This document shows positions 52,517-55,427 of a DNA stretch of 64,000 nt, one piece after another. Made by a program: the position numbers and the translations under genes. The DNA is from Candidatus Latescibacterota bacterium. Its GTDB lineage: Bacteria; Latescibacterota; UBA2968. Each line of letters opens with the position of its first letter. Position 1 is the first letter of the stretch. Under the pieces are notes generated by a model. The model searched no databases. It was given only the letters and a program-made list of their open reading frames with translations, and was not told the origin of the DNA. The stretch covers positions 4,384,001 through 4,448,000 of the forward strand of contig OZ240241.1 in NCBI GenBank assembly GCA_965198115.1, written 5' to 3'.

Positions 52517-53185
52517 TCAATAGTTCATCCCCATCGCAGCCTTGACACGCTCCAACGTCTGCTGACCCCGTATTCGTGCCTGCGACCCACCGAGGTTCAA
52601 CACGTCATTCACGAACGTAGGAACATACGTCTTCACTGCCTCTACAACAGTGTCACCGTCTTCACAGAAGTAAGGGGTCGGAATCGGAAAGACCTCCTCG
52701 TAGGCATCGTTGAACCGGCACGCAACGGCCTGCGCGAGCTCGATGTTCTCCCTTTGACTTTCAAAGACCAGCACGTAACGCGCTCCGAACATGAGAATGT
52801 CGGCGACTTGTGAAACCGGATAGCCCACGACGCTGAGGGACGTTCGTTTGGGCATTTCTCCCTGTTTCCGAATGTGCTTGCTCAGAAGATCCGTCAGCGT
52901 CACGAGGTTTCCCAAGATCATTGTCAGCTCCGACAGTTGTGGTACGGCCGACTGTAGAAAGCAGACCGATTGCTCGGGATCGAACCCGGCTACGAGGAAT
53001 CGTTCGACCGTCGCCTGGATCGCCCGATTCATCTTGATCCCGTGCTGACCCTTCCTCGTCAACGCCTGGTAATCTGCGATCATAAAGTGGCACTGGAACG
53101 TTTCCTGATAACCGAACAGCGGAGCGAGCCTCTCTGTTTTGCCTTCGAGCGCGGGTAGCACACCCGTAATCGCTACATCTCTCAT
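52517..53185 (-). CDS. Truncated tryptophanyl-tRNA synthetase paralog lacking HIGH, KMSKS and anticodon-binding domain
   Basis: IADYQALT, AGFDPEQS..FLQSAVPQLSELT, GYPVSQVADIL, RFNDAY..VFPIP and terminal TLERVKAAMGMNY are TrpRS-like; the ORF is uninterrupted (222 aa). Confidence 0.75.
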   Translation of the reverse strand: MRDVAITGVLPALEGKTERLAPLFGYQETFQCHFMIADYQALTRKGQHGIKMNRAIQATVERFLVAGFDPEQSVCFLQSAVPQLSELTMILGNLVTLTDLLSKHIRKQGEMPKRTSLSVVGYPVSQVADILMFGARYVLVFESQRENIELAQAVACRFNDAYEEVFPIPTPYFCEDGDTVVEAVKTYVPTFVNDVLNLGGSQARIRGQQTLERVKAAMGMNY

Positions 53186-53421
53186 CTCGAGCCATCCCTT
53201 CGTCTTTCTTGGAGTCTTGGTGTTTTGGTGGTTTGCTTGTCTAAACGAAAAAAGGCCGCGCACCCCCCGAAGGGACACGCGGCCTTGAGCCAGCATCGAT
53301 CGCGTCCGTCATCCGGTGGTGGGCGTACCTCTCCATCCAGCCACCACCACCAGCCACGAACGCTCGTGTCAGACACCATCGACAGTCTGCTGACACCGTT
53401 CTGCATTCCGTGCACGATCAT
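53182..53421 (-). CDS. Putative Trp leader ORF (RGWWWWL)
   Basis: Four tandem TGG codons at 53341-53352; ATGA overlaps with both the sigma stop and the TrpRS-like start; alternative ATG at 53379. Confidence 0.6.
   Translation of the reverse strand: MIVHGMQNGVSRLSMVSDTSVRGWWWWLDGEVRPPPDDGRDRCWLKAACPFGGCAAFFRLDKQTTKTPRLQERRRDGSR
53248..53286 (-). terminator. Intrinsic terminator/attenuator upstream of the TrpRS-like gene
   Basis: AAGGCCGCGTGTCCC-TTCG-GGGGGTGCGCGGCCTTTTTT on the minus strand. Confidence 0.85.
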
Positions 53422-55427
53422 TTTTCGACTCTCAGTCCCACCTTCACTTCTTCGACGAACTGACCCACTCTCCAAACCGCCTCCCCGATCTCGGTGAACG
53501 AATAGACCCCGTTTTCTCTGTTCATCAGGCTGTGCCGACCTTCCATCACCATCTGTCGTCGTGTCGTGGAATAGTCCCCGCACACCGACGCGACGATCCG
53601 GGTCAGCTCCTCTTCCTCGTAGTCTCGGATCTCTGGCAGCGTCCGAAGCCCCAGAATGGGATCGATATGCATCTCCTTGCCTCTGCTGGCTCCCTCATCC
53701 AGATACGCGGCTCCACGGATCCGTTCGATACGACGCAGTTCAAGCTCGGTCCGTTGCCGCGGTCCTTCGCCGACGTAAAGCGCGCGGGCGGCGACCTTCA
53801 TCAGTCTTCGATCACCTGATTTGGCGATCCGCGAGAGACAGGCACGCTTCTCGTCATCCGTAGCGACCTTTTTGTAGGCTCTCACTGCCGTCTCACGAAC
53901 GGATGGGTCTTCGTCTTCCTCCAGCCGCTCGAGTATGACGTCCTTGGCATCCACGTTGGCCCGCTTTCCCATCTCGTTCAGCACGCGCACACGTTCCGAG
54001 GGATCTTGATCGGTCACCTTCTCGATCAGTTCCTCCACGGTCTCCCGCACTTTGACACCCGGCACGTTGTACATCCGGCACGCGTCGAGAGCTCGGAGCC
54101 GGATGACCTCGTCATCTGATTCTGCAAGCGCCTTCAGCGAAGGGTGAATCCGGGCCGGCAGGAAGTGAACTTTCTCTCTGAAGAAGGATGTGTTGCGATG
54201 GAACGGCACCAGCATCAGTTCGTCCAGCATCCGGAAAGTGCGCTTGGAATCGCCCTCCTTGAAGACGCCGATCGCTGCGTCGCACAGCGGCTCGACGAGA
54301 TGAGCCAACGCCTTTCTCACGCCATACTCGACTTCATCATTCTCATCCAGCTCCCAGAACGCATCCCACAGCACCGGAAAGGCTTCCTCCGGATATCCGA
54401 GCAGGACCCGTGACAGCTCGAACATCTCTTTGTGAGTCTGTCCGGGTTGGCCGGAGTCTTTGATCGTCTGAATCAGCCGGACCAGCAGGCGAACCTTTTT
54501 CGCTTCCGTTGCGGGCGAGGCAATCACACCATCCAGCAGCAGGTTCACACCCCTCACGCCGTACCAGGATCTCAGAATCCAGCGTTCGGCCACCCGTGCC
54601 GCACGTTCCGCCAGTTCTTCGTCTTCCGACAGGCAGCAAGTGGCGAGAACCGGCATCGCCGGGACCAGCGAAAACCTCACGACGTGCGCGATGTGCACGA
54701 GACGCTCGTCGGTATCCGCCACTTTGAGCAGGTCGACCAGGCGAGCCGAATCGGCCTCGATCACCTGTCTCAACCGAACCATCGGCTCGCTATGGCCTTT
54801 GACCCTATCCACACCGTTCGCCGCCTCGACCTCCTCTTTCAGCGCGTCGAGCAGCTCGAGCTCGAGCCTGAAGCGAATCGCAAGATCTGTCTCTTCCATT
54901 GTGTAATCCTCTAAGCCTGAGATGGCTTTCCGCAAAGCGTTCTTGGCGCGGTGAATCCGACTCATCACCGTGCCGATCGGCATACCCAAATCATCGGCGA
55001 TCTCCTGGTAGGAGAGTCCAATCCGATAGCACAGATCCAGGATCTGTTGATGGTCCGAATTCAGCAGAGCGATGCCGTGAGCCACGCGATCGTATTCCTG
55101 GGCATCATCCTCGCGCTGTATCGTCTCGACCAGGATCTCCGGATCGGGAATCGCCTTCTGCACACGATACCAGGACCGACAGAGGTTCCGTGTGATCGTG
55201 CGAAGCCACGCCGCGAAGAACTCGGGGTTACGCAACTGATCGAGTTTGAGATAGGCTTCGACGAATGACTCGAGGACGAGATCTTCCGCATCATCCTCAT
55301 CCCGCGTGAACTTCCGACAGATGGCGCGAACGTCGGCCTCGAAGGCCTGCATCAAGGTCCCAAACGCATCCCGATCGCCGTCCCTCGCCTTTAGAACTAG
55401 GTGCGTGTAAGAGGTCTGGGTCTTCAT
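53418..55427 (-). CDS. ECF sigma-70 factor with ~500-aa C-terminal extension (HEAT-like repeats, DUF2087-like tail)
   Basis: DAEDLVLESFVEAY, FAAWLRTITRNLC, LSYQEIADDLGMPIGTVMSRIHRAK; repeats DEVIRLRAL, DPSERVRVL, DPSVRETAV; tail YEEEELTRIV..DYSTTRRQMV. Confidence 0.8.
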   Translation of the reverse strand: MKTQTSYTHLVLKARDGDRDAFGTLMQAFEADVRAICRKFTRDEDDAEDLVLESFVEAYLKLDQLRNPEFFAAWLRTITRNLCRSWYRVQKAIPDPEILVETIQREDDAQEYDRVAHGIALLNSDHQQILDLCYRIGLSYQEIADDLGMPIGTVMSRIHRAKNALRKAISGLEDYTMEETDLAIRFRLELELLDALKEEVEAANGVDRVKGHSEPMVRLRQVIEADSARLVDLLKVADTDERLVHIAHVVRFSLVPAMPVLATCCLSEDEELAERAARVAERWILRSWYGVRGVNLLLDGVIASPATEAKKVRLLVRLIQTIKDSGQPGQTHKEMFELSRVLLGYPEEAFPVLWDAFWELDENDEVEYGVRKALAHLVEPLCDAAIGVFKEGDSKRTFRMLDELMLVPFHRNTSFFREKVHFLPARIHPSLKALAESDDEVIRLRALDACRMYNVPGVKVRETVEELIEKVTDQDPSERVRVLNEMGKRANVDAKDVILERLEEDEDPSVRETAVRAYKKVATDDEKRACLSRIAKSGDRRLMKVAARALYVGEGPRQRTELELRRIERIRGAAYLDEGASRGKEMHIDPILGLRTLPEIRDYEEEELTRIVASVCGDYSTTRRQMVMEGRHSLMNRENGVYSFTEIGEAVWRVGQFVEEVKVGLRVEK

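Follow-up and report, generated by a model that had tools for sequence, protein, structure and literature searches.

A second, accessory tryptophanyl-tRNA synthetase (TrpRS) beside the housekeeping enzyme has been described in bacteria. D. radiodurans TrpRS II (2a4m, 1yi8) and T. maritima TrpRS (2g36) are of this kind, and both are full-length and active. In Streptomyces the auxiliary gene can be under attenuator control. The trpS2 gene of S. avermitilis, which encodes an active enzyme, lies behind a leader with Trp codons and an intrinsic terminator (PMC1262725), and the indolmycin-resistant TrpRS1 is reported to be attenuator-controlled as well (PMC4787780, PMC9437257).

Other synthetase paralogs no longer aminoacylate. 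In animal mitochondria, SLIMP forms a heterodimer with SerRS2: its active site is ablated, and it is kept as a dimer partner that retains its tRNA-binding domain and is needed for charging (PMC10570016). HisZ, CysRS* and the cyclodipeptide synthases are catalytic-domain paralogs without aminoacylation or anticodon domain, and among the last, AlbC shares the TyrRS/TrpRS fold (PMC5388404, PMC9437257). In Anabaena, a stress-induced ThrRS paralog has been proposed to mix with the housekeeping synthetase, as trans-oligomerisation of T1 and T2 (PMC4787780, PMC9437257). HisZ and SLIMP show that dead paralogs exist for other amino acids. For bacterial TrpRS we found no such remnant described in the full-text literature, a scope that leaves most subscription papers outside, and supplements (e.g. 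that of PMC5388404) may list such paralogs.

The locus presented here comes from an uncultured lineage of the Latescibacterota. The window, that is, the whole stretch of 64,000 nucleotides that was analysed, carries on its minus strand an uninterrupted reading frame of 222 codons plus stop (52517 to 53185), which we call short trpS-B. In Pfam (E up to 0.1) it matches only PF00579, at profile positions 29-183 of 292, in the profile alignment that the first-pass annotation had proposed as a check. Against TIGR00233 (trpS) it scores 86 bits, below the cut-off of 176.75, compared to 318.6 bits for the housekeeping gene (trpS-A) of the same genome and 278.4 bits for a full-length relative of the short gene (trpS-B). 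Two motifs of class Ic TrpRSs are missing: in place of HIGH stands a shorter, different segment, and KMSKS is absent. The GxDQ position reads FESQ. Hence, the protein does not belong to the TrpRS enzyme family, and judging from these motifs it is almost certainly catalytically dead.

Aligned to E. coli TrpRS, the protein covers residues 30 to about 185 and then 301-329. Residues 184-298 of TrpRS form the anticodon-binding helical domain and residues 299-334 are part of the catalytic domain (PMC12135181). Thus the anticodon domain is gone, and the helix that completes the catalytic domain is kept, joined to FPIP by a linker of about 20 residues. The first-pass annotation had read an open frame, a replaced HIGH and the loss of KMSKS and anticodon domain from the letters, and frame, profile and alignments agree with it. 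What remains is the Rossmann core, the CP1 dimer helix, the indole pocket and the C-terminal helix. An AlphaFold model (pLDDT 86, pTM 0.85) and a fold search with it (TM about 0.85 to bacterial TrpRSs) predict a stable TrpRS-like fold. In model and fold search the Rossmann fold with CP1 and the indole-binding Asp are present, and by alignment this Asp, D129, corresponds to E. coli D135.

Three other readings of the frame were discarded. A gene call of 259 amino acids (ATG at 53296) starts inside the upstream regulatory element described below, and it was rejected because relatives begin at the same Met as the 222-codon frame. A putative purine-rich ribosome-binding site (53192 to 53200, minus strand) precedes this Met. 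An assembly error is contradicted by a separately built short-read contig (run X1, possibly the same sample) with 0 differences over 5164 bases and by the sharing of the deletion among relatives; a further read run (X3) yielded only short pieces, without variants. Finally, a cyclodipeptide synthase was rejected since PF00579 is the only Pfam match and the 40 listed fold matches are TrpRSs or a designed protein.

The short gene is not the only trpS-like gene of its genome. PF00579 has three matches: a TyrRS-like gene, an intact trpS-A with HLGH and KMSKS (C1:551680), and the short frame. There is one tRNA-Trp gene, with G73, which rejects the idea of a dedicated tRNA for the short protein. The genome also carries a full trp operon (C1:5563000-5579700), in the order trpE-G-D-C-F, a tyrS-like gene, an unknown gene and trpB-A, followed by genes resembling DAHP synthase, prephenate dehydrogenase, aroA and aroE (some of these labels are readings of the sequence). 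In front of the operon stand a terminator and a leader of 30 codons in which Tyr, Phe and Trp are abundant. This arrangement looks like a mixed attenuator for aromatic amino acids, and the operon behind it includes a synthetase. Two further features are a selenocysteine tRNA (C1:3585303-3585400) and, in the window (53418-55427, minus strand), a 669-residue ECF sigma factor fused to HEAT repeats and DUF2087, which in a neighbouring genus (genome G010) is adjoined by a second related frame.

Identity of the short protein is 33% to trpS-A and about 50% to the second family, trpS-B. Full-length trpS-B encodes about 332 amino acids with HLGH, KMGKS and a four-Cys motif. Its closest PDB matches are the D. 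radiodurans and T. maritima accessory enzymes introduced above (E 4e-89 and 1e-80). By these comparisons the short gene descends from a TrpRS-II-like gene of the Latescibacterota. We found trpS-B in 38 of 168 genomes of the phylum, with 16 copies full-length (one of them cut by a contig end) and 22 internally deleted. It occurs in 28 of 31 genomes of the window genome's family, 9 of 22 of a sister family and one of three of a third; one named database record with a copy is Latescibacteria bacterium UBA2968. All 22 genomes with short copies have a second TrpRS match, and from 15 of them a type-A sequence was extracted. The four-Cys motif, which lies in the anticodon domain, is present in 16/16 full-length copies (e.g. 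L018:1426-2421) and in 0/22 short ones. It resembles the iron-sulfur motif of T. maritima TrpRS.

The surroundings of the gene differ between families. In the sister family trpS-B follows directly behind trpS-A in 9/9 cases. In the window genome's family trpS-A is unlinked to trpS-B and has moved behind an HNH-like gene (named from its motif), without a Trp leader. At one such locus (L001:2233-6733), acetyl-CoA-carboxylase-like and HNH-like genes (labels read from the sequence) separate trpS-A from efp, which is encoded on the same strand about 3 kb upstream. G010 carries a full-length trpS-B between the same flanking genes as the window copy. In that genus (L023 of G010, P0121, P0122) Thr replaces the second Lys of KMSKS, giving KMSTS, so this full-length protein may already be impaired.

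Short forms have been made repeatedly. Within a single genus, where 10 copies are full-length, 11 are short and identity is high, three in-frame deletions differ from one another (252, 261 and 261 nt); one of them sits on a short direct repeat. Further breakpoints are seen in database proteins: KMGKS is kept at lengths of 273 and 258 aa, and part of the Cys motif at 236 aa. Protein databases are biased towards in-frame products; our genome searches, which read through stops, found one broken copy in 38. Across genomes and database proteins, every deletion spares the terminal helix in frame. Together these proteins form a size series under the same Trp switch, from the full enzyme of 332 aa through 273, 258, 248 and 245 aa to the motif-less core of 222 aa. 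KMSKS is kept in 0/22 short copies and HLGH in 9/22, while QSxVPxLxE and the terminal-helix motif are kept in 22/22. The youngest deletions remove the anticodon domain first and are those that keep HLGH. An AU test does not reject a single clade of window-clade and sister-family short forms (p 0.18). The suggestion of separate origins for the deeply eroded forms in the two families rests instead on synteny with the full-length copy of G010 and on differing breakpoints.

The switch common to these genes lies upstream. On the minus strand, a leader frame with a likely ATG at 53379 (the start is inferred) runs to 53182 without a stop before the terminator. It contains four tandem Trp codons (TGG, 53341 to 53352), followed by Pro-Pro-Pro-Asp codons (53311-53322), which with the bases after them (53301 to 53322) are predicted to pair either with the Trp codons or, as an antiterminator, with the terminator arms. 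The intrinsic terminator (53248 to 53286), conserved in relatives, has a 16-bp stem, a 3-nt loop and a U tract. In folding, this upstream region beats all 200 shuffled versions (z -3.4). The leader stop overlaps the trpS-B start codon (53182-53185), an arrangement that would allow translational coupling; the position of this stop is not conserved in relatives. An Rfam search for a T-box or other RNA gave only two chance-level matches.

A leader of this kind precedes 38/38 trpS-B copies, with the Pro run 10-11 codons after the Trp codons. The run is Pro-Pro-Pro in 35 of them; PQP, PTP and LPPG occur once each. We modelled nascent folds for 20 leaders. With the Trp codons blocked, the antiterminator reaches -13 to -28 kcal/mol; with the block extending through the Pro run, only -3 to -15 kcal/mol are left. 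Equilibrium folds of the whole leader show a clear switch in only three of the nine leaders folded. On these models it is highly probable that the element is an attenuator responding to charged tRNA-Trp. It is predicted to be read through when the ribosome stalls on the Trp codons, that is, to be on when charged tRNA-Trp is low, the usual direction for such switches. The first-pass annotation did not include this attenuator, the chief indication of when the protein is produced.

A classical attenuator has a leader stop codon, and only 4 of the 38 leaders have an in-frame stop before the U tract. The Pro run lies at the point where a translating ribosome would need to stop, and our hypothesis is that a pause at Pro-Pro-Pro replaces the missing codon. 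Ribosomes stalled on polyproline can become uncoupled, which lets an intrinsic terminator form (PMC5021804). Since this effect is described mainly without EF-P, which the genome encodes, we put the pause forward only as a hypothesis. No indel separates Trp and Pro codons in 20 aligned leaders. Because the Pro codons also complement the Trp codons, a conserved frame on its own is no proof of a translated pause. Sister-family trpS-A has another, conventional Trp leader in front of it, one that contains a stop, and trpS-B there thus follows two attenuators. Loci of the group labelled f1 (L018, L007, L016, L024 and more) carry two Trp attenuators in tandem directly before trpS-B, at a distance of 150-300 nt; one of them has a stop codon and the other does not, as if trpS-A had moved out from between them.

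Is the short gene under selection? Between the window genome (G000) and a genome of the same genus (G001), 146 of 218 residues are identical (67%, dN 0.22). Silent sites are saturated: 32 of 77 four-fold sites are identical (0.42), within the 0.37-0.47 of six neighbouring genes and trpS-A. A pairwise test rejects dN/dS (w) of 1 with p 5e-34 and w=0.1 with p 0.008, a result for the window copy that rests on G000 and G001. The closest intact relatives of this copy are P0003 and P0004 (79% and 75%). For selection we rely on this test and on the four-fold sites, because the branch-model w of the G000 tip (0.002) is unreliable, with dS saturated and the fit stopped at its iteration limit. A comparison of w between segments is circular since the segments were chosen by conservation. 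Other short lineages agree: w is 0.043 in the pair G051/G052, 0.31 in six g7 copies (p 1e-27) and 0.083 in four g4 copies of 248 aa. Two sets of full-length trpS-B give 0.11 and 0.04, and trpS-A in the same pairs gives 0.02-0.16. Thus the constraint on short trpS-B is real but weaker than that on trpS-A.

Selection of this kind does not make the gene indispensable. The short protein evolves faster than its neighbours, whose identity is 73-95%, in part because the G001 copy has recently decayed. That copy contains three TAG stop codons. An alternative genetic code was rejected as their explanation: TAG ends the frame of the neighbouring GNAT gene, and two of the three fall on Gln positions. One cluster has a split copy (P0078/P0080), two products look frameshifted (P0008, P0161; sequencing errors may account for these), and in the sister family trpS-B is absent from 13 of 22 genomes, which have no remnant near their trpS. 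For these reasons short trpS-B is dispensable.

Could the short gene then be a redundant enzyme in slow decay? After trpS-A took over, trpS-B would have drifted, with only folding alleles tolerated until they too were lost in time. The long branches of the tree, the w of 0.26-0.45 in g7 pairs compared to 0.03-0.05 for trpS-A, the deletion on a direct repeat, the recent pseudogene in the same genus and the frequent clean loss all fit such a drift. However, a frame of 222 codons has stayed open at dN 0.22 while silent sites saturated, the window copy retains every site invariant in the family, and its leader is intact, as the comparison with shuffles above shows. Moreover, losing the gene is evidently easy, so that tolerance alone would not keep it. 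We therefore regard decay as quite unlikely, and the short gene is very probably kept by selection in the window lineage.

This outcome bears on the proposal of the first-pass annotation that the gene was repurposed rather than decaying at random. Four results favour it: a canonical trpS (the type-A gene) elsewhere in the genome, 22 deleted copies rather than a singleton, w far below 1 in the window pair and other short lineages, and a protein predicted to fold. A full-length trpS at this locus in a close relative, combined with a singleton short form at dN/dS near 1, had been named as the pattern that would speak against it. The full-length gene exists, in G010, but the rest of the pattern is absent.

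To ask what is kept, we took sites conserved in the 16 full-length copies and counted how many survive in seven members of the window clade and in ten short proteins of the sister group. Retention is highest in the CP1 helix (0.84 in the window clade, 0.81 in the sister group) and the terminal helix (0.79 and 0.86). It drops to 0.15 and 0.34 in the HIGH segment, to 0.07 and 0.23 in the KMSKS region and to 0.00 and 0.13 in the anticodon domain. CP1 is the part of TrpRS from which dimer interface, Trp pocket and contacts to the acceptor arm are made (PMC12135181), and in bacterial TrpRS the C-terminus reaches the other subunit (PMC2831299); CP1 and C-terminus together make up the dimer interface (PMC12135181, PMC2831299). 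By alignment, the best-kept parts of all short forms are thus the segments that form the dimer, not the Trp pocket. The same segments belong to the structural core, and the need for a stable fold could by itself account for some of this retention.

The first-pass annotation had seen the amino-acid pocket as what is retained. The indole pocket of E. coli TrpRS consists of G9, V42, H45, Y128, M132, D135, I136 and V144 (PMC10201369). The window-clade equivalents, G8, A37, Q40, Y122, Q126, D129, I130 and V138, are indeed kept in six to seven of seven members, including D129, the equivalent of the Asp bonded to the indole nitrogen. As for GxDQ, its Gln, which had been listed alongside the pocket motif, is present in the window copy and not kept in the clade (Q in one of seven, H or R in five, a stop codon in one), and hence it is no evidence of selection. 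The equivalent of the acceptor-stem Arg106 is kept in 0/7. In the sister group the pocket itself erodes: Y122 is lost in 5/10 short forms, Q40 in 7/10 and D129 in 2/10, and the dimer segments stay. These counts do not support the view that the pocket is what selection keeps.

A kept pocket could serve a protein that dimerises with itself and acts as a sink for Trp analogues or TrpRS inhibitors. A blocked TrpRS would leave less charged tRNA-Trp, the attenuator would open, and the dead protein would bind the indole compound; without an anticodon domain it could bind an analogue and no longer charge it onto tRNA. The window clade is compatible with such a role, since D129 is a buried polar residue, and the position after V138-L139, which is A, G or S in 6/7 (A in 5/10 of the sister group), could widen the pocket. 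So are the youngest deletions, which take the anticodon domain before HLGH, and the ancestor, closest to D. radiodurans TrpRS II, given that auxiliary indolmycin-resistant TrpRSs are known (PMC9437257). The eroded pockets of the sister family and the lost Gln do not fit, and binding Trp itself during starvation would do harm. From the alignments we consider a sink unlikely.

The retained interface is also particular to trpS-B. Its residues match the TrpRS-A consensus at only 0.33 and 0.35, and so it fits a homodimer of trpS-B proteins or a third partner equally well. The positions corresponding to the E. coli two-fold pocket (A89, G92, W93, N96, L131) vary among short forms. By analogy to HisZ, which serves ATP phosphoribosyltransferase, and to TrpRS II, which serves nitric oxide synthase (PMC5388404, PMC9437257), the short protein might be a regulatory or scaffold subunit of a different protein: full-length trpS-B would already have had a second job through its own surface, and only that job would still be selected. 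This surface is just as invariant in full-length copies, including that of G049, a genome in which the other TrpRS has a much lower score than type A with the same query, and the trp operon could supply a target. Yet no candidate partner travels with trpS-B; the flanking GNAT and glycosyltransferase genes stay when it is lost (G029, G036). A scaffold role of this sort seems improbable to us.

To explain switch, fold and retained segments together, we propose that short trpS-B is a starvation-induced dead subunit that pairs with the housekeeping TrpRS-A through its retained dimer surface, a reading from sequence comparison to which we give a probability of roughly 0.4. The Trp-codon attenuator would switch the gene on when charged tRNA-Trp is scarce, and a folded, dimer-competent pseudoenzyme would be made during the shortage. 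In TrpRS one tRNA is bound by both subunits of the dimer, and the apo form of the E. coli enzyme is partly dissociated (PMC12135181, PMC10201369). The anticodon rests on one subunit and the acceptor end on its partner, so that in a mixed dimer the single live site would face no anticodon domain. It could form the adenylate but would charge tRNA poorly, throttling charging during Trp shortage. Alternatively, mixed dimers may keep apo-TrpRS subunits folded and in store throughout the Trp shortage.

Two further points count against pairing with TrpRS-A. An inhibitor induced by uncharged tRNA would create a positive feedback loop, which is hard to justify, and in the window genome's family trpS-A is neither linked to the short gene nor preceded by a leader. 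An extended form of the pairing proposal is an anti-synthetase born several times: an accessory TrpRS would lose in turn the anticodon domain, KMSKS and HIGH, and its dead remnant would poison or park the housekeeping enzyme during tryptophan stress, under an attenuator with a polyproline pause in place of a stop codon. This we offer as a doubtful but conceivable history.

If the leader works as predicted, it would be a Trp attenuator with a Pro-Pro-Pro pause for a stop, tying Trp sensing to EF-P. The natural series from full enzyme to 222-aa core makes the turn of an essential enzyme's copy into a regulator directly testable. The same series is suited to asking how cross-subunit tRNA binding and half-of-the-sites catalysis change when one TrpRS subunit has no anticodon domain.

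How does the locus compare to the systems introduced above? Like the D. radiodurans and T. maritima enzymes, trpS-B is a second, accessory TrpRS, but the window copy has no HIGH, KMSKS or anticodon domain. Like trpS2 of Streptomyces, it is a second trpS behind a Trp-codon leader and terminator, but its product is dead and its leader usually has Pro-Pro-Pro and no stop before the terminator. T2 of Anabaena is an active enzyme induced by zinc lack (PMC4787780, PMC9437257), whereas short trpS-B is dead. HisZ, CysRS* and AlbC are old families with known partners or chemistry, whereas the window gene is recent and arises repeatedly, with no new catalytic residues identified. SLIMP retains its tRNA-binding domain and is needed for charging, whereas the window protein has lost both functions, is dispensable, and its pairing is putative. 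The window gene does combine ablated active-site motifs with purifying selection, as required of a dead subunit of the SLIMP or HisZ type. By analogy, short trpS-B would thus work most like the dead synthetase paralogs SLIMP and HisZ, and it appears to be regulated like trpS2 of Streptomyces.
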